Shown: positions 3,389 to 61,716, counted from the stretch's first letter. The stretch is DNA of 64,000 nt from an uncultured Clostridia bacterium (GCA_944386165.1 CALXAA010000005.1:3328-67327); one strand, 5' to 3'. A program made the numbers and translations. The notes: generated from the sequence alone by a model not told the origin.

Positions 3389-3655
3389 TCAGTCATGACT
3401 TTGATTTCCATGCCCTCCTTCATAAGGTCTTTTAAATGCAAATCCAACATATATTGGAGCACCATATATATATCTTTGACTATTCCAAGCTTGCATAGTT
3501 CTTTTGTCTGTCCATAATATATTACTTTTGCTAGAACCTCTAAATTCCCTGACTCTTAATGTTCCGTTTGTATTGTAAGGCATAGATTCATTTTCTCCTC
3601 TGTAATATGTTTCCATTCTATTTGTATCTTGATTATAAACTAAAATTTTTGCCAT
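3389..3655 (-). CDS. small hypothetical protein (88 aa), possibly a truncated M15A-like peptidase fragment
   Basis: Start moved to the MAKILV ATG at 3655, behind a GGTGGAGG SD. The C-terminus (PIYVGFAFKRPYEGGHGNQSHD-stop) resembles the SGYR..GG..SxH part of peptidase M15A but ends before the metal-binding HxxGxAxD continuation. Confidence 0.4.
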   Translation of the reverse strand: MAKILVYNQDTNRMETYYRGENESMPYNTNGTLRVREFRGSSKSNILWTDKRTMQAWNSQRYIYGAPIYVGFAFKRPYEGGHGNQSHD

Positions 3656-3717
3656 AGATACCTCCACCTTTTTCTTATATAATATGAAATTTTTTGAAAT
3701 TGGTGAATTATGTCATA

Positions 3718-3750
3718 AAAATACTTAAGACTTTTGGCCTTAAGTATTTT
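3718..3750. terminator. bidirectional rho-independent terminator
   Basis: Perfect 12-bp stem AAAATACTTAAG / CTTAAGTATTTT with a 9-nt loop. The A-run and T-run are built into the arms. Lies downstream of the sortase gene. Confidence 0.65.
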
Positions 3751-3788
3751 GGTTCTATAAAAATGCTCTCATAATTAATAATTTTGTT

Positions 3789-7258: not shown

Positions 7259-9064
7259 TTATTCATCATCTAGTTTTAAAACTGATAAAAATGCTTCTTG
7301 TGGCATTTCAACACTTCCTATTTGTCTCATTCTTTTTTTACCACGTTTTTGTTTTTCAAGTAATTTCTTTTTCCTTGTTATGTCTCCTCCATAACATTTT
7401 GCTAGTACATCTTTTCTCATTGCTGAAATTGTTTCTCTTGCAATGATTGTTCCTCCAACAACTGCTTGTAAAGGTATTGCAAATAAATGTCTTGGAATAA
7501 CTTCTTTTAGTTTTTCTACCATCTTTTTTCCTCTTTCATATGCATTTTCTTTGCATACTATAAAAGATAGTGCATCAACTGGTTCTCCATTTACATGTAT
7601 ATCTAGTTTTACTAGATTAGATTTTCTATATTCTTTGAATTCATAATCAAAAGATGCATATCCTTTTGTTCTTGATTTAAGACTGTCAAAAAAGTCATAT
7701 ATTATTTCGTTTAAAGGCATGTCATAAATTAGTGTTACTCTGTTTTCATCTAAATATTTCATGTCAATAAATGTGCCTCTTCTATTTTGGCATATGTCCA
7801 TTATATTTCCAACATATTCTTTTGGTGTAAATATGCTTGCAGTTACTATAGGTTCTTCCATATATAATATTTCTGTTTGTGGTGGTAAGTCTGTAGGATT
7901 ATAAACATCAAGTACTTCTCCTGTTGTTTTATGTACTTTGTATATTACTGATGGGGCAGTTGTTATTAGTCCTAAGTCAAATTCTCTGTCTAGTCTTTCT
8001 TCAATTATTTCTAAATGAAGTAGTCCTAAAAAACCACATCTAAATCCAAATCCTAATGCTGCAGATGTTTCTGGTTCATATTCTAATGCTGCATCATTTA
8101 ATTTTAATTTTTCTAATGCTATTTTTAGATTTTCATATTCACTTCCATCTACTGGGTATAGTCCACAATATACCATTGGTGTTACCTTTTTATATCCTGG
8201 AAGAGGTTTATCTGCTGGATTGTTTTTTAATGTGATTGTATCTCCTACATGAATATCTGTTAGACTTTTTATACTTGCTGCTATATATCCAACTTCTCCT
8301 GCTTTTATTTCTTTTGTTGGCATGTATTGTCCTGGGGCAAAATATCCCACCTCAGCTACTGTAAAAGATTTTTTTGTTGCCATTAATGTAATTTCATCTC
8401 CAACTTTAATTGTTCCGTCAACTACTCTTACATATGCAACAGCACCTTTATAATTATCATAATAAGAGTCAAATATTAAGCATTTTGCTTTAGCATTTTC
8501 ATCACCTTTTGGTGCAGGTAAATCTGTTACAATTCTTTCTAATACTTCATCTACATTTAATCCTGATTTTGCTGAAATACATGGTGCATCCATTGCAGGA
8601 ATTCCAATTATGTCTTCTATTTCTTTTTTTACTTCTTCTGGTCTTGCATTTGGTAAATCAATTTTATTTATTACTGGAAGTATTTCTAAATTATTATCTA
8701 TTGCTAAATATACATTTGCAAGTGTTTGAGCTTCAACTCCTTGACTTGCATCTACTACAAGTATTGCTCCATCACATGCTGCTAAACTTCTTGAAACTTC
8801 ATAATTAAAATCTACATGCCCTGGTGTGTCTATTAAATTAAATATATATTCTTCTCCATCTTTTGCTTTGTATTTCATTCTTACTGCTTGAGATTTTATT
8901 GTTATACCTCTTTCTCGTTCAATATCCATGTTGTCTAATACTTGCTCTTCCATTTCTCTTTGTGTTAAAACTCCTGTTTTTTCGATTAGTCTATCTGCAA
9001 GTGTTGACTTTCCATGATCTATGTGTGCTATTATACTAAAGTTTCTAATTCTTTCTTGACTCAT
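7259..9064 (-). CDS. lepA: translation elongation factor 4 (LepA)
   Basis: GTPase motifs [22 protein letters not shown] and the LepA-specific C-terminal domain. Start set at MSQERIRNF behind an AGGAGGA SD. Confidence 0.95.
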
Positions 9065-18911: not shown

Positions 18912-19003
18912 TTTATCTCCTCCTTGTTTATTTACATTATTGAGTCCTATTATATCATGTTTTTACACATTTTCATACTATTTTTTAAAAATTTTGTCAA
19001 TGA

Positions 19004-19071
19004 GTTGTCAATGGGGACGGAGATTTTGACAACTGACAAAAAAGTTGTCAAAATCTCCGTCCCCATTGACA
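19004..19071. repeat. REP-like doublet: two inverted copies of the dispersed hairpin repeat separated by 10 nt
   Basis: 19004-19033 reads GTTGTCAATGGGGACGGAGATTTTGACAAC. 19044-19071 reads GTTGTCAAAATCTCCGTCCCCATTGACA. The two are reverse complements over 28 nt. A partial TTGTCAATG stutter lies at 18994-19002. Confidence 0.9.
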
Positions 19072-19331
19072 CTAATTTTCATAATGACCACTACAAGAAA
19101 TTATAATCAAATTCTTATTTTCATCAAAATTATATACAAGGCGATGTTCTTGAGTTATTCTTCTACTCCATGCTTTCCTGTGTTTTAATGGCTCTGGTTT
19201 TCCAAGTCCTTTCTCTAGTCCATTTCTGTTGATATCTTTTATAAGTTCATTAATTTTTTTACCATTGATTTATCTTTCATTTGCCAATCTGTATACTCTT
19301 CCCAAGCTTTTTCGGAAAATATATTATTCAT
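19072..19331 (-). pseudogene. yoeB: YoeB/Txe-family type II toxin, disrupted by a 1-nt deficit in an A7 run
   Basis: The ATG at 19331 overlaps the antitoxin stop (ATGA). Frame 1 reads MNNIFSEKAWEEYTDWQMKDKSMVKK, then stops. With one extra A in the run at 19254-19260 it continues INELIKDINRNGLEKGLGKPEPLKHRKAWSRRITQEHRLVYNFDENKNLIIISCSGHYEN. This closely parallels E. coli YoeB (VKKINELIKD..GKPEPLKH..WSRRIT.EHRLVY). Confidence 0.85.
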
Positions 19332-19693: not shown

Positions 19694-19731
19694 TGTCAAT
19701 GGGGTGTCAAAATCTCCGTCCCCATTGACAA
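19694..19731. repeat. REP-like repeat copy with an abutting partial inverted arm
   Basis: TGTCAATGGGG (19694-19704) is directly followed by TGTCAAAATCTCCGTCCCCATTGACAA (19705-19731). An alternative 11-bp stem TGTCAATGGGG/CCCCATTGACA is possible. Confidence 0.9.
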
Positions 19732-19737
19732 TCGCCA

Positions 19738-22700
19738 CTATTCAACACTTTTCAAGCTTTCAATCATATCAATTTTTCTTAAAACAAAGTGAATTATGAA
19801 GTTTACAATTAGAGAAAATACAATTGTTGTTACTGCTGAAATTATATAACTTGATAAAAGTATATTTTCGGCAAATCTTAATGAGTCTATTTCTATACTT
19901 GCAATTATTCCACTTGTTATCAATACTCCAAGTCCAAGTCCTAAAATTACACCAAAAACTGTAAATACCATATTTTCTTTGTTTATGTAATTATCAACTT
20001 CTTTATCATAAAATCCTAAAACTTTGAGTGTTGCAATTTCTCTTTGTCTTTCTCCTATATTTATATTTGCTAAATTGTATAATACAACAAATTCAAGCAT
20101 TGCAGATGTAACAATTAGTACTATTACAATATAATTCATAGTGTTTAGCATATCACTTACTTGTTTTACTAAACTAGATGTGATTGAAACTGATGCTACT
20201 CCATTAAAGTTTAATATTTCTTCTGAAATTGTATTTTGTTGTTCTTCACTTATATCTTTTGTATTTACAAGAATCATATTTGTTTTATAGGTATAGCCCA
20301 TATTTGCTTCATAATATTCTTTAGACATATAAATATAATGTGATACATAGTTTTGAGTAATTCCATCAACTTTTAATTTATGTTCGATATCATCACTATC
20401 GATTATTGTTATTTCATCTCCAACTTCAATTTCAAATGTATCAGCTAACTTATCTGTTATAATTACTCCGCTATTACTTATTTGAAGTTTTTCTTCATCT
20501 TTTACATCAATTAGGTTACATACTTCTTCAAAATTTTCTGTATTGTTTGGTACAAAAATATTTACATCATAACTTATTTCTTCATTAGATACTTTGCCTG
20601 TTGATGCATATACTTCGTGAAAGTTTTCTATGTTTTCATTTTCAGATAAATATTTGGTAATATCATTTAATCCATCTGTGTTTGATAATGTAATTGATGT
20701 TTCATATTTAAATATGTCATTAAATTGAAAATCAGGTATATCAGAAACTGAATCTCTAATTCCAAAACCTGCAAGCATAAGTCCTGTGCATCCTGCAATT
20801 CCTATAATTGTAATAAGTGCTCTTTTTTTGTAACGAAAGATATTTCTAACAGTTATTTTTTGTGAGAAATTGAATCTTTTCCATATAAATGTTATTTTCT
20901 CCATTAATATTCTTTTTCCGTTTTTTGGAGCTTTTGGTCTCATTAATATTGCTGGTGTCTCTTTTAATTCTTTATATGCAGAAAGTATTGTTGCTCCTCC
21001 TATACAAATAAATGCTATTAAAATTCCTGCAAGACCTATTTCTACACGGTATGTAATATAAAATTGCGGAATTGTATATATCATTGAATATAACTCCCAA
21101 ACAATTGTTGGTAGTAAGTAAAAACATACTGTCATTCCTAAAATTCCACCTATTACACAGGCAAGAAATGCATATAATATATATTTTGAAATAATTTGCA
21201 TGTTTGTATATCCTAATGCCTTTAAAGTTCCTATTTCTGTTCTTTCTTCATCAATCATTCTTGTCATTGATGTTAGGCTTATCAATACTGCTACTAAATA
21301 AAATATTACAGGGAACATTTTGGATATATTAGACATTGTTTCTATTGCATCAAAAATATTTGTATATCCTGTGTTATCAAATCTATCTTGTATATACCAT
21401 TTTGCCTTTTCTATTTTTGTAATATCTTGTCTTGCTTCATCAATTTTTGCTTGTGCATCATTTAATTCTTGCTCTGCTTCTGCTTTTTTCTCTTGAAATT
21501 CTTGTTCATTTGTTTCTATTTCTGTTTTAGCTTCTTGAATTTGTTTTCTTCCATCTTCTATTTCTGCTTTTCCATTAGATATTTTTTTATATGCGGTTTT
21601 TTTATTAGTTTCTAATTCTGATTTTTGTCTTTCTATCTCTGCTTTTGCATTTGCTAGTTCTGTTTCTCCTGAAGTGATTTGTTCTTCTGCACTTTTTAAT
21701 TGATTTTGAATTTCTGTTTTTTGTGCTTGTAGCTGGTCTATTGTTCCTTGTGCTGTAGTAATTCCAGCATCTATTTCTGTGGTATCCATTCCTGCTTGAA
21801 TTAGTTGCTCTTTTTGTGTTTCTAATTGTTGCAGAGTATTTTGTGCTGTAGTAATTCCTGAATCAATTTGCCCGATTGCTTCATTTGCTTGAGTTCTTTG
21901 AGTTTCTAATTCTGTTTTTCCACTTTCCAATTCAGCAGATTTAGTATTTATATGTTCTTCTGCATCTGAAATTTGTTTTTCTGCATCACTAAATTGTTTA
22001 TTTAAATTTTTTTCTTGTTGTGTTAACTGTTTTTCTGAATTATTTAATGTTGTTTCCTGCTCACTTATTTCATTTTTTGCATCATTTATCTTATTTTCAG
22101 CATCTTGTAATTCACTATCTGCTTCTGCTTTTTTATCATCAAATTCTTTTTGTGCTTCATCTATTTTTTCATTTGCTTCATTTATCAAACCATCATATCT
22201 TGCTTGTTCTCTTATTTCTTTTATTTCTTCTATTTTTTGATAAACTGGATTTACTAATTTAAGATATGAATTACTATCTGTTACTTCTTCTTTTGCTCCT
22301 GAAACTTTTACTCCAATTTCTGTATAGTAATCTAAATTTATAACATCATCTTTACAGTATATGTAAAATGAAACTTTTCCACTTCCTATTGTAGTTGTTC
22401 CTCTTTCACTTGATATATATATAGGTGATTCAACTATACCAACTATTTTAAATTCTTTTGTTGTAAATATTGGGTTATCATTTTCATCTAAATCTTCATT
22501 TTGTAATGTTATAGTTTTTCCTATGTATTCTTCTGGATTTTCAGTTTGTACATATGCATCGTCTAATAAGCATTCATTTGAATTTTCTGGCAGTCTTCCT
22601 GCTATTAATGTTGGAGTGTTAATATTTTCATTATATTCTATTACTTTACAAATACTTTCATTTTCATCAATTAAAGCAAATGAGTCTTTTGTTTGTATTC

Positions 22701-22959
22701 CATATGCTCCTTCAACACCATCAATTTCTTGAAGTGCCGTTATATCTTCATCAGTTAGTCCTAGTGTTGAAATAATGTTTATATCATATAAATTACTACT
22801 ATCTGCGTATTTATCTAAACTATCTAACATATCTGGACTTGTTGCAACTAATCCCGCAAAAAAGCCTACTCCTAAAAATGCCATAACTAGTATAGATAGA
22901 AATCGTCTTCTTGTTTTAAATATTGTTTTTATATTATTTTTTAACAATGACTTTTTCAC
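19738..22959 (-). CDS. MacB/FtsX-type ABC transporter permease with two FtsX modules and a long coiled-coil extracytoplasmic insert (1073 aa)
   Basis: TM helix, large extracellular domain, 3-4 TM (FtsX-like), then a second repeat of the same arrangement. The central 300 aa are Q/E/K-rich heptad-like coiled coil. Paired with the ATPase upstream. Confidence 0.8.
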   Translation of the reverse strand: MKKSLLKNNIKTIFKTRRRFLSILVMAFLGVGFFAGLVATSPDMLDSLDKYADSSNLYDINIISTLGLTDEDITALQEIDGVEGAYGIQTKDSFALIDENESICKVIEYNENINTPTLIAGRLPENSNECLLDDAYVQTENPEEYIGKTITLQNEDLDENDNPIFTTKEFKIVGIVESPIYISSERGTTTIGSGKVSFYIYCKDDVINLDYYTEIGVKVSGAKEEVTDSNSYLKLVNPVYQKIEEIKEIREQARYDGLINEANEKIDEAQKEFDDKKAEADSELQDAENKINDAKNEISEQETTLNNSEKQLTQQEKNLNKQFSDAEKQISDAEEHINTKSAELESGKTELETQRTQANEAIGQIDSGITTAQNTLQQLETQKEQLIQAGMDTTEIDAGITTAQGTIDQLQAQKTEIQNQLKSAEEQITSGETELANAKAEIERQKSELETNKKTAYKKISNGKAEIEDGRKQIQEAKTEIETNEQEFQEKKAEAEQELNDAQAKIDEARQDITKIEKAKWYIQDRFDNTGYTNIFDAIETMSNISKMFPVIFYLVAVLISLTSMTRMIDEERTEIGTLKALGYTNMQIISKYILYAFLACVIGGILGMTVCFYLLPTIVWELYSMIYTIPQFYITYRVEIGLAGILIAFICIGGATILSAYKELKETPAILMRPKAPKNGKRILMEKITFIWKRFNFSQKITVRNIFRYKKRALITIIGIAGCTGLMLAGFGIRDSVSDIPDFQFNDIFKYETSITLSNTDGLNDITKYLSENENIENFHEVYASTGKVSNEEISYDVNIFVPNNTENFEEVCNLIDVKDEEKLQISNSGVIITDKLADTFEIEVGDEITIIDSDDIEHKLKVDGITQNYVSHYIYMSKEYYEANMGYTYKTNMILVNTKDISEEQQNTISEEILNFNGVASVSITSSLVKQVSDMLNTMNYIVIVLIVTSAMLEFVVLYNLANINIGERQREIATLKVLGFYDKEVDNYINKENMVFTVFGVILGLGLGVLITSGIIASIEIDSLRFAENILLSSYIISAVTTIVFSLIVNFIIHFVLRKIDMIESLKSVE

Positions 22960-51107: not shown

Positions 51108-54100
51108 TCAATCAAATAATTTTAATATTTCTTCTTTTGACAATCTACTAATAAATGACACTTTTGTATCAAGCATATTATCTATTAATTGTGACTTTCT
51201 TTGTTGTAGTTCATATATTTTTTCTTCTATAGAATTTTTTGTTATTAATTTATAAACTTGTACATGATTTTTTTGACCAATTCTATAAGCTCTGTCTGTT
51301 GCCTGGTTTTCAGCAGATGCATTCCACCATGGGTCATAATGTATTACCATATCTGCACCAGTTAAATTCAATCCTGTTCCTCCTGCTTTTAATGAAATTA
51401 AAAAAACTTTGATGTTTTTATTTTCATTAAATTCATCTACCATTCTGATTCTTTCATCAACCTTTGTTGCACCTGTTAATTTAAAATATTTAATTGCATT
51501 ATTATCTAATTCCTTTTCTATTAATTCAAACATAGATGTATATCCAGAAAATAGTAAAATTTTGTGTCCCGCTTCTACAGCATCTTTAACAATTTCTACA
51601 CATTGTTCTAATTTACTACTTCCCCCTTCGTAATCTTTTATAAATAAACTTGGATGACAACAAATTTGCCTTAATCTAGTTAGAGCTGCTAATACTTGAA
51701 TATGGCTTTTTTCTATGCCATTCAATTGAATTGCTTCTTTAACATCCTGTTTTGCTTGTGCCAAATATGTTAAATATATTTTTTCTTGTTCTTCCTTCAT
51801 TTGGTTATTCAAAACTGTTATTGTTTTTTCAGGAAGTTCTGTTAATACTTGTTTTTTTGTTCTTCTTAAAACAAATGGCTCAATTAACATTTTTAATTTT
51901 TTCATTGCTGTTACACTATTTTCTTTTACTATAGGTGTTTCATATTCTGTTTTGAATTTTTTATATCCAAATAAATATCCTGGCATAATGAAATCAAAAA
52001 TAGACCATAATTCTGCTAATGAATTTTCTATTGGTGTACCTGTTAAAGCATATCTTGTTTCTGCAACAATCTCTTTTACTGCTTTTGCATTTTGTGTATT
52101 ACTATTTTTTAAGTATTGTGCTTCATCGGCAATTGCATATTTGAATTCATATTTCTTTTCTTTATATACTTCAATATCTCTTTTTAATAAATCATATGAT
52201 GTAATAATTAAATCATAATTTTGAATCTCTGAAATTTGTTTTTTTCTTTCTTCTGCAGTTCCTCTAATTACAAGAGTTTTTAAATTATTTGTAAATTTTT
52301 GTGCTTCATTTTGCCAGTTTAATGTAAGTGAACTTGGACTTATTACTATTGATGCTTTTCTTTCTTTTTCTTGTTCTACATATCCTACAATAATTGATAA
52401 CATTTGAACAGTCTTTCCAAGCCCCATATCATCTGCTAAAATTCCACCAAACTTATAATTATCTATCGTTTTTAACCATTTATATCCTGTTTTTTGATAA
52501 TATCTTAATACATTTTCTAAGTTTGATGGTATTTGAATATCTTCTTCTCCATTTTCTTTGTCTAGTCCATTTATAATTTTCTTATATTCTGAATTTTTTA
52601 TTATTTGTGTATCATTTATTGTTTTTAATAATTGGTTTAAATATAATGTTCTATTTACAGGTAAACGTATATTGCCTTTTTCTAGTTCTTTATAGCTTAT
52701 ATCCATTCCTTTTATTAGTTTATCAATAAATTCAATATCTTGGTTTTCTTCAAAACTTACAAATGTTCCGTCTTTTAACTTATGATATTTTTTCTTTAGT
52801 TCATATTTTTTTATTATATCTTCTAATTCTTTTACATCTATATTTAAGTTTTGTAAATCTATTGTTAATAAATTGTTTTCAACTTTGATTCCTAAACTTC
52901 CTATTTTAGGTTGCTTTATTTGTTTTGTTCTAAATTTATCTGTTACCATTACCTCAAATGCTTGCATATAATTTTGAATGTCATTTGATAGAAATTCATA
53001 AATTTTATCTTCATCTGGTAATATAAAACATTTTTTGGATTCATAAAACATAAATCCTGTTTTTCTTATCATGTTAACAGCTTTACTTTCTGCAATCATA
53101 TCTCGTGGGTATTTGGTATCAATTTTTGGTTCTAATGGATTAAATTCTATATCTCCATAGCAAAACTTTATCTCTGCTAGAATTCTATCATGTTCATCAA
53201 AATCTAAAAACATTTTTACCACTAAAGTTTTAGGTTTATATTTTTCTATTTCTTTTTCATTAATATCTTTGAATTCAATGTTGTTTTTTAGACGCGGAAT
53301 TATTACAGAAAAAAGTTCTGGTAATTGTTCTTTTCCAAAAACTATTTCTGTTAGATAATTCTCTTTAAATAATTGTAATAGTCTTATTACTGAATTTTCA
53401 TATTCTTTGCTACATTTATATATTGTTCCTTTAAATAAAATGTATGTATTTTGTTTTCCTTCAAATATTTTTAAATCTTTTATAATATCTATATTATCAG
53501 TTAAAATTATTTTATATTCTTTTTCATTTACTTTCTTTATTTTAAAGTGTAATTTGGGATCATTTTCCGAAAAATTAATAATGCTATCTTCATTTTCTGT
53601 TTGCATTAATACATTTCTATCTTTTAAAATATCAAAAAGCTTATCTAGTAATGTTCTATTTACTACTATACTGCTTTCATCTAGTGCTTTTCCATAATAT
53701 CTGTAATTAGAATTTGAATTAGAATTTACTGTATTTATTATTTCAGCATTTTTTAATATAAAATCTAATAAGTCTTGGTCTTTTTCGGTGAATGCTTCTT
53801 TTTTATGTATAAATTCTAAATTATTACCATATTTGAATTTTTCAGAATGTTGCATTCTATCATAAAATTCAACTAGGTTTTTAAGTTTATACATTCTTTT
53901 ATCACCAATTTTGAAATCAATTTTTAATGAATTATAATACTTATTATATATAAGCCTTGGTTCAATTTTTATTTTATTATTAATATCTGTTTCTACTCTT
54001 TTTTCTTCTGTTTCATGCATTTCTTCTTCATACAATTCATTTACTATCTGCGCAAAACTTCTATATTTTTGATTTGCTCTTAGTTTTTTATTTACATCAA

Positions 54101-54431
54101 TTTTATCTTCTCTTGATAACATGTTTTCGTATTTTGGATTTTCATCAAATTCCATTATTGTGGCTATTATATGTTTACATGCTGCATATCTACCTCTATA
54201 ATCTAAACATTCACATGTTATATCACTAATTTCTCCATCTTCAACAGATACATTAGTTCTATAAATTTCTTGTCCTAATACTTTTCCCGTAATTTCGAAA
54301 TTGTTTTTATTTTTGTAATTTATTTTTGTAATATCAACTTTTTCTGTTTTCACATATAATCTAGCTTTTTGAACTCTTATATCACCTGCATCTTCAAATA
54401 ATTCTTCTTTTATTTTATTATCAACTAACAT
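51108..54431 (-). CDS. SNF2-family helicase with an N-terminal SWIM zinc finger (YwqA-like)
   Basis: SWIM CxC..CxH (CECLDYRGRYAACKH). Helicase motifs LADDMGLGKT, ADEAQYLKN, LTGTPIEN, and C-terminal QATDRAYRIGQ. Confidence 0.9.
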   Translation of the reverse strand: MLVDNKIKEELFEDAGDIRVQKARLYVKTEKVDITKINYKNKNNFEITGKVLGQEIYRTNVSVEDGEISDITCECLDYRGRYAACKHIIATIMEFDENPKYENMLSREDKIDVNKKLRANQKYRSFAQIVNELYEEEMHETEEKRVETDINNKIKIEPRLIYNKYYNSLKIDFKIGDKRMYKLKNLVEFYDRMQHSEKFKYGNNLEFIHKKEAFTEKDQDLLDFILKNAEIINTVNSNSNSNYRYYGKALDESSIVVNRTLLDKLFDILKDRNVLMQTENEDSIINFSENDPKLHFKIKKVNEKEYKIILTDNIDIIKDLKIFEGKQNTYILFKGTIYKCSKEYENSVIRLLQLFKENYLTEIVFGKEQLPELFSVIIPRLKNNIEFKDINEKEIEKYKPKTLVVKMFLDFDEHDRILAEIKFCYGDIEFNPLEPKIDTKYPRDMIAESKAVNMIRKTGFMFYESKKCFILPDEDKIYEFLSNDIQNYMQAFEVMVTDKFRTKQIKQPKIGSLGIKVENNLLTIDLQNLNIDVKELEDIIKKYELKKKYHKLKDGTFVSFEENQDIEFIDKLIKGMDISYKELEKGNIRLPVNRTLYLNQLLKTINDTQIIKNSEYKKIINGLDKENGEEDIQIPSNLENVLRYYQKTGYKWLKTIDNYKFGGILADDMGLGKTVQMLSIIVGYVEQEKERKASIVISPSSLTLNWQNEAQKFTNNLKTLVIRGTAEERKKQISEIQNYDLIITSYDLLKRDIEVYKEKKYEFKYAIADEAQYLKNSNTQNAKAVKEIVAETRYALTGTPIENSLAELWSIFDFIMPGYLFGYKKFKTEYETPIVKENSVTAMKKLKMLIEPFVLRRTKKQVLTELPEKTITVLNNQMKEEQEKIYLTYLAQAKQDVKEAIQLNGIEKSHIQVLAALTRLRQICCHPSLFIKDYEGGSSKLEQCVEIVKDAVEAGHKILLFSGYTSMFELIEKELDNNAIKYFKLTGATKVDERIRMVDEFNENKNIKVFLISLKAGGTGLNLTGADMVIHYDPWWNASAENQATDRAYRIGQKNHVQVYKLITKNSIEEKIYELQQRKSQLIDNMLDTKVSFISRLSKEEILKLFD

Positions 54432-54536: not shown

Positions 54537-54592
54537 TTGTCAATGTCAATGTTGTCAATTGGGTTGTCAATGAGGACGGAGATTTTGACAAC
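54537..54592. repeat. REP-like repeat copy (reverse orientation) preceded by stuttered partial arms
   Basis: TTGTCAATGTCAATGTTGTCAATTGG is followed by GTTGTCAATGAGGACGGAGATTTTGACAAC (54563-54592; 1 mismatch to consensus). Confidence 0.9.
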
Positions 54593-55101: not shown

Positions 55102-55145
55102 TGTCAATGGTTGTCAAAATCTCCGTCCCCATTGACACATTGACA
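55102..55145. repeat. REP-like repeat copy (forward orientation) with partial arm and terminal 8-nt duplication
   Basis: TGTCAATGG + TTGTCAAAATCTCCGTCCCCATTGACA (55111-55137) + a duplicated CATTGACA. Begins 1 nt after the xre stop codon. Confidence 0.9.
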
Positions 55146-55235
55146 TAGAATTTTTTTATTTACCCTTATTTAAGTCGAAAATAATTTTAAACTTTGGAGG
55201 GTAAAACCTCCATAATTTAAAGGAGGAAACATCTC

Positions 55236-55496
55236 ATGAAAATGAAACGCTGGACTTTAAAACTTATTATTGCAGTAATAATAGCAACAATTATATTCTT
55301 GTGTAGTAAAATCATATTTGAACTGTGTTCATATCCCGAAAGTAATAGAACAACTTCGTCTCAATGTGACAAAAAAGAAAATATTAATTCTAATGATGCC
55401 TACTATGCTATGGCACAAATGTATCTTGCTCAGGGAAATTTGGGGATGTGGAATTTTTATATGAGCATGGCCAATGCTAATGGTCAACATAATTGA
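55236..55496 (+). CDS. small membrane protein (86 aa), unknown function
   Basis: Strong AAAGGAGGAAAC SD. One N-terminal TM (LKLIIAVIIATIIFLCSKIIF). Followed by a very strong terminator. Confidence 0.6.
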   Translation: MKMKRWTLKLIIAVIIATIIFLCSKIIFELCSYPESNRTTSSQCDKKENINSNDAYYAMAQMYLAQGNLGMWNFYMSMANANGQHN

Positions 55497-55616: not shown

Positions 55617-55672
55617 AACATGTATATGCACTTTAGATTATCAGATAATCTAAAGTGCATTACATGTTTTCC
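55617..55672 (+). terminator. very long hairpin terminator (25-bp stem with one bulge)
   Basis: AACATGTAtATGCACTTTAGATTATC a GATAATCTAAAGTGCATTACATGTT, followed by TTCC. Confidence 0.7.
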
Positions 55673-55714: not shown

Positions 55715-55743
55715 GTGTCAATGGGGATGGAGATTTTGACAAC
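55715..55743. repeat. REP-like repeat copy (reverse orientation), left flank of the Y1 transposase gene
   Basis: GTGTCAATGGGGATGGAGATTTTGACAAC; 2 mismatches to consensus. Confidence 0.9.
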
Positions 55744-55764
55744 TTTTACTTATTTTGTTTTTTG

Positions 55765-56484
55765 CTATTGATTATAAATTTTTCTAACCGTTTCTCTACT
55801 TATTTCTAATTCTTCTGCTATTTTTCTCAACGAAATTTTATTTTTATCTTTCAAAAGCAAAATTAGTTCCTTTAACAATTCCTTTCTTTGTTTTATAGAT
55901 TTTAAGTCTATCCTGTTTTCTTTTAAATATGCTTCTATAATTTTATTACATGTTATCACATTCTTTTCATCCACATCAATAAATACATATTCTTCATTAT
56001 TGCACTCACTGTTAGTCATCAAACTATATCTCTCTTTAAATTCGGTTTTCATCATTTTATAATTTGAATAAGGATATTCTTCAGGTTTGTTACATATTCC
56101 TGCTTTTACGGGATTATTATAGATATATTTTATGCAGTTATATAAATGTTTTTCACTATATATTCCTTCCGCTTTATACCTATCTCTAAAAACATAGCCA
56201 ACTCTACTATATTTTTTATTATAATATTTTCCATATGTAGTATTAATTCTTTGCATATATTTACTTAATTGTTCAATTAATTGCGTTTTTATTAACATAT
56301 GTGTATGATTATTCATTATACAATATGCTATTATATTGATGTTATGTTCTTCTTTTATTTTATACATTATTTTTACATAATATTTTATATCTTCTGGTTT
56401 TTCAAAAATATAACTTTTTTCAATTCCTTGAGTAATTACATGGAAAAATGGAGTATTCATGTAGTTTCGCGGAAGTCTTGACAT
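55765..56484 (-). CDS. IS200-like Y1 (HUH) transposase of the REP-associated tyrosine transposase (RAYT) type, with a C-terminal HTH-like tail
   Basis: HUH motif in CIMNNHTHMLIK. Catalytic-Tyr region YNCIKYIYNNPVKAGI and GYVFRDRYKAE are typical of COG1943/Y1_Tnp RAYT-like proteins. The C-terminus LRKIAEELEISRETVRKIY looks like a helix-turn-helix. Confidence 0.8.
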   Translation of the reverse strand: MSRLPRNYMNTPFFHVITQGIEKSYIFEKPEDIKYYVKIMYKIKEEHNINIIAYCIMNNHTHMLIKTQLIEQLSKYMQRINTTYGKYYNKKYSRVGYVFRDRYKAEGIYSEKHLYNCIKYIYNNPVKAGICNKPEEYPYSNYKMMKTEFKERYSLMTNSECNNEEYVFIDVDEKNVITCNKIIEAYLKENRIDLKSIKQRKELLKELILLLKDKNKISLRKIAEELEISRETVRKIYNQ

Positions 56485-56498
56485 TAAATTCCTCCTTT

Positions 56499-56547
56499 AC
56501 AAAAATAGTATGATATAATAGCAAATATTATATCATACTATTTTTGT
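56499..56547 (-). promoter_or_regulatory. 21-bp perfect inverted repeat abutting the RAYT ribosome-binding site
   Basis: ACAAAAATAGTATGATATAAT / ATTATATCATACTATTTTTGT with a 7-nt loop. On the minus strand the hairpin ends directly at AAAGGAGG, 6 nt before the ATG. Contains TATAAT on both strands. Confidence 0.8.
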
Positions 56548-56593
56548 ATTTTTTGTCGAAACTTGTAATTATTTAAATTTTTTTATTATAAAA

Positions 56594-56623
56594 GTTGTCA
56601 AAATCTCCGTCCCCATTGACAAC
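56594..56623. repeat. REP-like repeat copy (forward orientation, full 30-nt consensus)
   Basis: GTTGTCAAAATCTCCGTCCCCATTGACAAC, 12 nt from the 3' end of tRNA-Gly. Confidence 0.9.
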
Positions 56624-56635
56624 CTTCAAAAAAAT

Positions 56636-56709
56636 TGGAGCGGGTAGAGGGAATCGAACCCTCACCACCAGGTCGGAAGCATGGGATTCTACCATTAAAC
56701 TATACCCGC
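56636..56709 (-). tRNA. tRNA-Gly (anticodon UCC), CCA encoded
   Basis: Hand-folded cloverleaf: 7-bp acceptor GCGGGTA/TACCCGC, T-arm GAGGG-TTCGATT-CCCTC, anticodon loop CT-TCC-GA, 74 nt including the 3' CCA. Confidence 0.9.
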
Positions 56710-61612: not shown

Positions 61613-61674
61613 GTTGTCAAAATCTCCGTCCCTATTGACATTTTTCGTTGTCAAAACTTCCGTTCCCATTGACA
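61613..61674. repeat. two tandem direct copies of the REP-like repeat
   Basis: GTTGTCAAAATCTCCGTCCCTATTGACA (61613-61640) and GTTGTCAAAACTTCCGTTCCCATTGACA (61647-61674), with a 6-nt spacer. Located between the gltX start and the amylase stop. Confidence 0.9.
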
Positions 61675-61716
61675 CAAAAGTTATTATACTATAATATTGC
61701 TTATTTTTCAAGTATT

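Follow-up and report, generated by a model that had tools for sequence, protein, structure and literature searches.

The closest described relatives of the system reported here are the TIRYT genes, which Di Nocera, De Gregorio and Rocco (2013; PMC3733652) found to be bracketed by terminal inverted repeats with a common GGGGWSAS sequence; neither a loop position for this motif nor covariation of a surrounding stem is described in that work. Quentin, Siguier, Chandler and Fichant (2018; PMC6006769) equated the TIRYTs with TnpA_Y1 subclass 2.1 (subgroup 2.1.2), which consists of long proteins that end in a Bac_DnaA_C, HTH_23 or HTH_28-like domain, and stated that they found no repetitive extragenic palindrome (REP)-like sequences near subclass 2.1 genes. 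These proteins probably correspond to Group 1 of the REP-associated tyrosine transposases (RAYTs) of Bertels et al. (2017; PMC5581495), a group that also occurs in Clostridia, is the most insertion sequence (IS)-like of the RAYTs, and has 6.3% duplicates and some copies on plasmids. For group 3 TnpA_REP proteins, bases in the loop are essential for REP recognition (PMC8266576); beyond that study, which covers groups 2 and 3 only, searches for newer work on subclass 2.1 or on Firmicute RAYTs turned up nothing relevant. Here we analyze a 64,000-nt stretch of DNA from an uncultured Clostridia bacterium (GCA_944386165.1 CALXAA010000005.1:3328-67327; hereafter the window, GC content 26.9%), in which a Y1/HUH gene at 55765-56484 lies between inverted copies of a short hairpin repeat. 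We regard this locus as a TIRtron, a REPtron-like unit of the TIRYT group; it is of a known kind and a fresh member in gut Clostridia.

A Y1/HUH gene bracketed by inverted hairpins

The gene, the two repeat copies that flank it and the spacer between them are listed here, with positions counted from the first letter of the window.

55765-56484, minus strand: gene for a 239-aa Y1/HUH protein, a predicted TIRYT-type nuclease-ligase (open reading frame (ORF) translation, Pfam, NCBIfam)
56595-56622, minus strand: hairpin repeat upstream of the gene, with its G-rich loop on the minus strand and its edge 110 nt before the start codon
55715-55742, plus strand: downstream hairpin repeat in opposite orientation to the upstream one, beginning 22 nt past the stop codon
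56485-56594, minus strand: spacer between the start codon and the upstream repeat (promoter and palindrome scan)

The inverted arrangement and both distances are exactly those of the original prediction, and the two copies together with their flanks make up an inverted repeat of 38 nt with 92% complementarity. The 28-nt element is TTGTCAATGGGGACGGAGATTTTGACAA. On the coding strand the upstream copy reads GGGGACGGAG, with a 14-nt loop closed by the stem TTGTCAA/TTGACAA; it folds as single-stranded DNA (ssDNA) with -5.9 kcal/mol (z -4.1). The downstream copy has the loop variant GGGGATGGAG, with the G-rich loop on the plus strand and its C-rich complement on the coding strand.

A scan of genomes yielded 490 relatives. 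The best 79 loci were kept, 78 of them from different genomes that are mostly Clostridia and other Bacillota; the nearest contigs were Bacillota/Clostridia metagenome-assembled genomes (MAGs). For each gene we then took the best inverted repeat between its two flanks, with no motif assumed. A GGGAC-bearing inverted repeat brackets the gene in 61 of 77 related loci, mostly from Bacillota, and its orientation is constant, with GGGAC on the coding strand upstream. This is contrasted by 0 of 200 control placements shifted 4.5-7 kb away. Such bracketing of related genes by inverted hairpins appears to be new. In 43 of the 79 loci the repeat occurs at least once more at a distance of over 500 nt from the gene, and hairpin loci outside Bacillota were found in Endomicrobia (L041) and NPL-UPA2 (L073).

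With the palindrome centre as reference point, a gap-free alignment of 113 distinct hairpins taken from other genomes has an invariant GGGAC at positions -5 to -1, on the 5' side of the loop. Around this fixed motif the stems vary by species, examples being TGTCAA/TTGACA, TTGCCA/TGGCAA, GGCAGGCAA/TTGCCTGCC and TGAGTCA/TGACTCA. All eight stem pairs take at least four pair types, and 88% of cells are paired as compared with 44% in shuffles and 33-45% with the partners slid; this paired fraction, unlike the diversity of stems around the fixed loop, is partly built in, because only hairpins with 6 bp or more of perfect stem were admitted. An invariant loop GGGAC in a fixed register within freely covarying stems, which is a variant of the published GGGGWSAS, also appears to be new. 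The hairpins have AT-rich stems and loops of 11-15 nt, and the candidate substrate is 28-35 nt long. Flank profiles of 184 hairpins revealed no conserved tag (GTAG, CGTC or other) on either side, and the 3' flank of the G-rich strand is T-rich (40-51% T vs a background of 29%). Fully palindromic cores occur in some relatives, for example GGGGACTGTCCCC and GGGGTCAGACCCC. It seems to be unreported that subclass 2.1 repeats exist as REP-like hairpins in dozens of Bacillota species, and their presence at these loci contradicts the statement in PMC6006769 that REP-like sequences are absent.

Two loci from Clostridium sp. CAG:440 and a related MAG (L020 and L022) are flanked by inverted hairpins whose loop, ATGGTTCCGGGTTTAAA, differs and contains no GGGAC, and the stem of the L022 hairpin is itself GTCCCC/GGGGAC. 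The loop motif may thus have switched inside the family. At three Proteobacterial plasmid TIRYT genes, GGGGTCAG is part of either a plain repeat or a short palindromic core, with no outer covarying stem, which indicates that the motif family is that already published. Placement of the motif in a hairpin loop seems to be what characterizes the Bacillota-dominated set that we sampled.

The protein groups with TIRYTs of subclass 2.1

The fold and catalytic residues of a Y1/HUH enzyme, which the original prediction had recognized from two motifs, are borne out by both Pfam and Foldseek. The HUH motif is N59-H60-T61-H62-M63 (NHTHM) and the tyrosine region is Y120-IYNNPVKAG (YIYNNPVKAG) with catalytic Y120. 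The protein is laid out as a Y1 core (residues ~1-143), a linker (~138-174) and a C-terminal helical helix-turn-helix (HTH) domain (~176-238). The proposed Pfam search returned Y1_Tnp with 4e-11, along with HTH models at residues ~202-238 (HTH_11, 1.1e-5; HTH_23, 1.8e-4; HTH_28, 1.9e-3). An AlphaFold2 (AF2) model has a mean predicted local distance difference test score (pLDDT) of 67, with a disordered linker (~138-174), and answers the suggestion that the structure of the tail be predicted: residues 176-238 form a helical bundle with pLDDT ~80. At E <= 0.001, Foldseek matched this model to Y1 transposases alone (IS608, IS200, ISDra2 and 4er8), with matches covering only the N-terminal Y1 core. 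By sequence the sole PDB match is 4ER8, the E. coli TnpA_REP (5.3e-5), and the IS608, ISDra2 and IS200 chains were unmatched in that search. NCBIfam gave a marginal pass for REP_Tyr_transpos (NF047646, 81.4 bits vs a cut-off of 80), whereas the IS200/IS605 model (NF033573) scored 19.3 bits, well under its cut-off of 55.

Across 80 aligned relatives H60, H62 and Y120 are 100% conserved. A serine motif follows the catalytic-tyrosine helix (YPYSNY here, WSSY in relatives) and its S140 is kept in 97.5% of these sequences. The invariance of the three catalytic residues and near invariance of S140 indicate that the nuclease chemistry is under selection. The C-terminal HTH-type domain is also retained among relatives, with conserved length and position and few conserved residues.

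Its position in the family was further tested with phmmer, for which Additional file 5 of PMC3733652 supplied the comparison sequences. Members of the main TIRYT group scored 40.9-91.7 bits, the highest being Geobacter gbm_2474 (91.7) and Firmicute Desulforudis dau_2153 (90.1), while canonical RAYTs scored 16.7-28.0 bits against the window protein. On the basis of these scores, we assign the window protein to the TIRYTs, and hence to TnpA_Y1 subclass 2.1. The protein collection holds more than 1400 homologues. An uncharacterized lineage, as had been suspected, is therefore not what we found, as the protein falls in a catalogued group. Nor are the HTH tail and the Firmicute host new, because an HTH domain defines subclass 2.1 (PMC6006769) and Firmicute members are already in published sets.

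Dispersed copies of the repeat

The remaining repeat copies in the window are the following.

19005-19032, plus strand, and 19045-19072, minus strand: inverted doublet, REPIN-like (pattern search, ssDNA fold)
19704-19731, minus strand: dispersed intergenic copy that follows the stop of a 1073-aa ORF (19738-22959) by 7 nt (pattern and covariance model)
54564-54591, plus strand: dispersed intergenic copy upstream of an SNF2-family gene, with three TGTCAAT half-sites before it
55111-55138, minus strand: dispersed intergenic copy that follows the stop of an HTH_3 gene by 10 nt (pattern, fold and covariance model)
61614-61641 and 61648-61675, minus strand: tandem direct pair, intergenic (pattern and covariance model)

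The repeat pattern has eight matches in the window at <=3 mismatches, where 0.00 were expected from 100 shuffles, and a ninth copy appears at 4 mismatches, giving nine copies in 64 kb at <=4 mismatches. A covariance model built from the hairpins of other genomes recovered exactly these nine copies and no other match, the top one being the upstream copy of the gene (29.8 bits). All nine are intergenic and they often stand shortly after stop codons. The doublet at 19005-19072 folds into a perfect 29-bp hairpin with an ssDNA energy of -36 kcal/mol (z -11.6), and the copy at 55111-55138 is nested between the outer arms TGTCAATG...CATTGACA. An Rfam scan of the window detected tRNA only, so that the repeat matches no Rfam family, and a full-text literature search for the loop sequences returned only unrelated primers.

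Extra half-sites consisting of TGTCAATG (the left arm and first loop bases) or its complement CCATTGACA directly adjoin several copies. They lie at 18995-19002, 54538-54560, 55102-55109, 55138-55146 and 19694-19703, with up to three in a row before the copy at 54564, and may be leftovers of older copies or favoured insertion sites.

Set against these nine copies is one gene, as tblastn of the protein in the window detected no second homologue. This single-copy gene with a multi-copy repeat, anticipated from the window, holds for its lineage. All strain contigs that we recovered from the window species agree in placing the gene at one locus. Exact repeat matches were found in 25 metagenome contigs, and one metagenome sample contains ~17 contigs of similar coverage that together carry ~30 repeat copies, with the gene on one of them. 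The identical protein is encoded by five independent contigs (L003-L007), all of which start 115-136 nt upstream of the gene, in or near the upstream repeat; this is typical of an assembly break at a multi-copy repeat. Among 2.9 million viral contigs the exact repeat was absent and a single, distant relative of the protein was present; we therefore rejected a phage origin.

Turnover of hairpins between strains

Comparison of strain contigs showed that repeat copies have been gained or replaced, being present in some strains and absent from others. At the site 55102-55146, two other strain contigs carry the 28-nt element in plus orientation where the window carries it in minus orientation, and in a third strain the element is replaced by the variant hairpin TGTCAATGG-GGGACGTTT-CCATTGACA (contigs compared: L103 7930-7975, L098, and L001 ~3650-3760). 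The outer arms around the window element at 55111 match the stem of this variant, as if the element had been inserted in the loop of an older hairpin. A second difference concerns the doublet at 19005-19072. In its counterpart on L106 (~8907-8987) the 10-nt central spacer is reverse-complemented (TGACAAAAAA in one vs TTTTTTGTCA in the other) and an additional T/A, the same in each arm, is present, which suggests a loop flip together with a concerted change of both arms. The polymorphic sites are complex replacements, and among them we found no clean pair of insertion and empty site that defines the ends of a single 28-nt copy.

The locus of the gene also varies between strains. The side with the SNF2 gene is conserved and the opposite side is not; the upstream copy at 56595-56622 is a junction for strain-variable DNA, and in the window a tRNA-Gly gene is directly next to it. 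Where the window has the single copy at 56595, L002 (5573-9891) and L001 have a 4254-bp island between two direct copies. This island encodes a 1013-aa protein and smaller proteins, for which Pfam and PADLOC gave no significant family. L100 (2190-9855) and L096 have a different sequence of at least 6.6 kb at the same junction. Taken together, the in-place flips, the gains and replacements and the bounded island suggest that DNA is processed or recombined at the hairpins.

One relative departs from the single-locus state. The Eubacteriales MAG MFD01112.bin.1.4 contains at least four copies of the whole hairpin-gene-hairpin unit of 883 bp, with 97.7-98.6% identity (L063 9890-10851 and 16220-17180; L070 4880-5813 and 9915-10851), and thus the unit is able to move whole in some lineages. 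A "single-copy domesticated" gene is consequently not a description that extends to the whole family. Homology between these units stops 4-5 nt outside GGGGAC at both ends, with starts of N|GTCAGGGGAC and ends of GTCCCCTGTCA|N, and no target duplication is evident at the copies. These homology ends are the best available hint to where the putative cut at each end would lie.

Comparison with known systems

By sequence the TIRYTs are by far the closest group to the window protein, which shares with them the long form with an HTH_23/HTH_28-like domain and the serine motif. As in described TIRtrons, inverted repeats with a G-run motif bracket the gene, and the repeat families are moderately abundant and sometimes form dimers. 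The window motif GGGGACGG fits 7 of 8 positions of GGGGWSAS, and an exact fit, GGGGACAG, is found in L037, L038 and L043. What differs here and in the sampled relatives is that the motif lies on the 5' side of a loop and that the outer stem covaries between species.

The likeness to classical REPtrons (E. coli yafM, 4ER8; Pseudomonas Group 3) lies in a single-copy Y1/HUH gene between inverted short palindromic repeats, in the dispersal of the repeat in intergenic DNA, partly as inverted doublets, in the co-evolution of repeat and gene, and in loop bases as possible recognition determinants (PMC8266576). However, the 5' GT[AG]G tetranucleotide at the foot of classical REPs is absent from the window copies and from the flank profiles of the 184 hairpins. 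The residues with which E. coli TnpA_REP contacts GTAG (W94, Q95, E100, H101 and R104) are not conserved, as seen in the 4ER8 alignment of IWQPRFWEHAIR vs GYVFRDRYKAEGI, and the window protein differs from classical RAYTs in its extra HTH domain and in scoring only 17-28 bits against them. The RAYT/REP character originally assigned to the locus thus stands in part: the unit is REPtron-like and the protein is nearer to TnpA_REP than to IS200/IS605 TnpA, but it is not a classical RAYT.

With the IS200/IS605 family the system has in common the Y1/HUH fold and, as a general logic, hairpin recognition in ssDNA; the multi-copy unit of one relative also resembles an IS. Unlike IS608/ISDra2-type elements, which have distinct left and right ends on one strand, the same hairpin is inverted at the two ends here. 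There is no tnpB and no adjoining ORF of tnpB size, and the whole element occupies one locus in the window species, the exception being the distant relative with at least four copies.

Promoter region and neighbouring features

The spacer upstream of the gene contains a promoter-like TCGACA-16-TATGAT, within TATGATATAAT, and a GGAGG ribosome-binding site. A palindrome with 20-bp arms at 56500-56546 overlaps the -10 element. The -35-like TTTCGACA, which is conserved in close relatives, followed by TATG(A/G)TATAAT with a palindrome over the -10 element, recurs in L008, L009, L013, L015 and L074. The position of the palindrome and the similar ones in relatives point to autoregulation, and the palindrome at 56500-56546 may be an autoregulatory operator.

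On the other side of the gene, a palindrome with a 16-bp stem followed by a T-run (55626-55660) lies between an 86-aa ORF (55236-55496) and the downstream repeat; it is likely a terminator that is unrelated to the repeat family. The tRNA-Gly (UCC) gene at 56636-56709 begins 13 nt beyond the upstream copy, and a tRNA-Gly gene likewise adjoins the upstream copy in L110, which encodes a protein of 87% identity. A neighbouring gene at 51108-54431 encodes a 1107-aa SNF2-family helicase with strong PADLOC matches to DpdE and ZorD over its helicase half, which may be due to no more than a general SNF2 resemblance.

Along the entire window the plus strand has a negative GC skew, which places the window inside one replichore with the minus strand leading. 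Of 57 related loci, 53 have their TIRYT gene on the G-rich (leading) strand.

Proposed mechanism and alternative explanations

We consider it likely that the locus is a TIRtron whose Y1 core acts in trans on folded hairpins. In this mechanism the strand with GGGAC would fold into a hairpin once the DNA is single-stranded, and the Y1 core would recognize the shape of the stem and read the GGGAC motif in the loop, for which the loop reading by group 3 TnpA_REP (PMC8266576) is a precedent. The HUH/tyrosine centre would cut and rejoin the DNA a few nucleotides outside the motif. By acting in trans on dispersed copies, the enzyme would cause them to be copied, inverted and inserted into or beside one another, with the gene itself remaining at one locus in the window lineage. 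The HTH domain may add binding of double-stranded DNA, such as autoregulation at the palindrome over the -10 element, and this is the least certain step.

Several points weigh against this mechanism. Binding, cleavage and mobilization of the hairpins by the protein are, for the subclass as a whole, what we infer from sequences. As ssDNA, a single hairpin with its 14-nt loop has little stability (-4.7 to -5.9 kcal/mol), and the percentage of paired stem positions is to some extent circular. A transposase of the IS608 type, which cuts the same strand at both ends, is not easily reconciled with ends that are inverted. A strict IS608-like mechanism would also predict a bias of dispersed copies toward the lagging-strand template, and the absence of a significant bias (43:33 overall and 29:16 for singletons, p = 0.07) weighs against it. 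Finally, SNF2, SerRS and DUF2508 neighbours are sporadic in related loci and synteny among close relatives is weak, which suggests that the unit, or its surroundings, moves over longer times.

Were the hairpin-gene-hairpin unit an autonomous IS that is single copy here by chance, the dispersed hairpins would be solo ends or miniature derivatives of its own transposition. The four or more units with sharp ends at the hairpins in MFD01112.bin.1.4 would fit such an element, as would the IS-like character of RAYT Group 1 with its duplicates and plasmid copies (PMC5581495), the TIRYT homologues on plasmids and the weak synteny among close relatives. We nevertheless think this unlikely, since all strain contigs of the window species have the gene at one locus and 78 of the 79 kept loci come from different genomes, since repeats outnumber the gene by at least 9:1 locally and by ~30:1 in one sample, and since one distant relative is all that 2.9 million viral contigs contain. 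The score of the IS200 model far under its cut-off, the lack of tnpB and the same hairpin inverted at both ends argue in the same direction.

The repeats could instead be double-stranded sites for the HTH domain, with the protein being mainly a regulator or chromosome-organizing factor and the hairpin potential being incidental. In agreement with this, the HTH-type domain is kept with conserved length and position, all copies are intergenic, the cores are fully palindromic in some relatives (GGGGACTGTCCCC and GGGGTCAGACCCC), and a palindrome overlaps the gene's own -10 element. A duplex operator, however, would not account for free covariation of the stems alongside conservation limited to one half of the loop; covarying stems with one-sided loop conservation are the pattern of selection for intrastrand pairing and strand-specific reading. 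The fully conserved HUH and tyrosine residues and the strain-level flips and insertions at copies, which indicate DNA processing, make this explanation quite improbable to us. There is least to be said for elements that act at the RNA level, as terminators or mRNA stabilizers, and that adjoin the gene by coincidence with no functional tie to it. Intergenic copies, often just after stops, and the T-rich 3' flank of the G-rich strand would suit such elements. But their AT-rich stems, 11-15-nt loops and, mostly, lack of a proper T-run would make the repeats poor intrinsic terminators, no Rfam family matches, and flanking in 61 of 77 loci as opposed to 0 of 200 controls, always in one orientation, leaves a coincidence scarcely credible.

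The trans-acting TIRtron that we favour might extend to a more general picture, which we advance only tentatively and hold to be possible rather than probable. In this picture subclass 2.1 would have a hairpin-repeat system of its own across Bacillota and beyond, in which GGGAC in a fixed register is read on the folded strand and the cut falls 4-5 nt outside the motif. The hairpins would be spread, flipped and nested, and the flanking copy would be a hot spot of island exchange.

Implications

The result overturns nothing established. Among Y1/HUH proteins only one group is larger than subclass 2.1, and this locus with its relatives provides a concrete candidate substrate for the subclass: a 28-35-nt hairpin with a GGGAC loop and natural compensatory stem variants from dozens of species, for which the multi-copy relative supplies approximate end points. 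As the repeats fragment metagenome assemblies and bound strain-variable islands, they also have practical relevance for MAGs of gut Clostridia. The candidate substrate would make subclass 2.1 comparable with the GTAG-type REP systems, and the findings would be of interest to specialists in both HUH enzymes and bacterial repeats.

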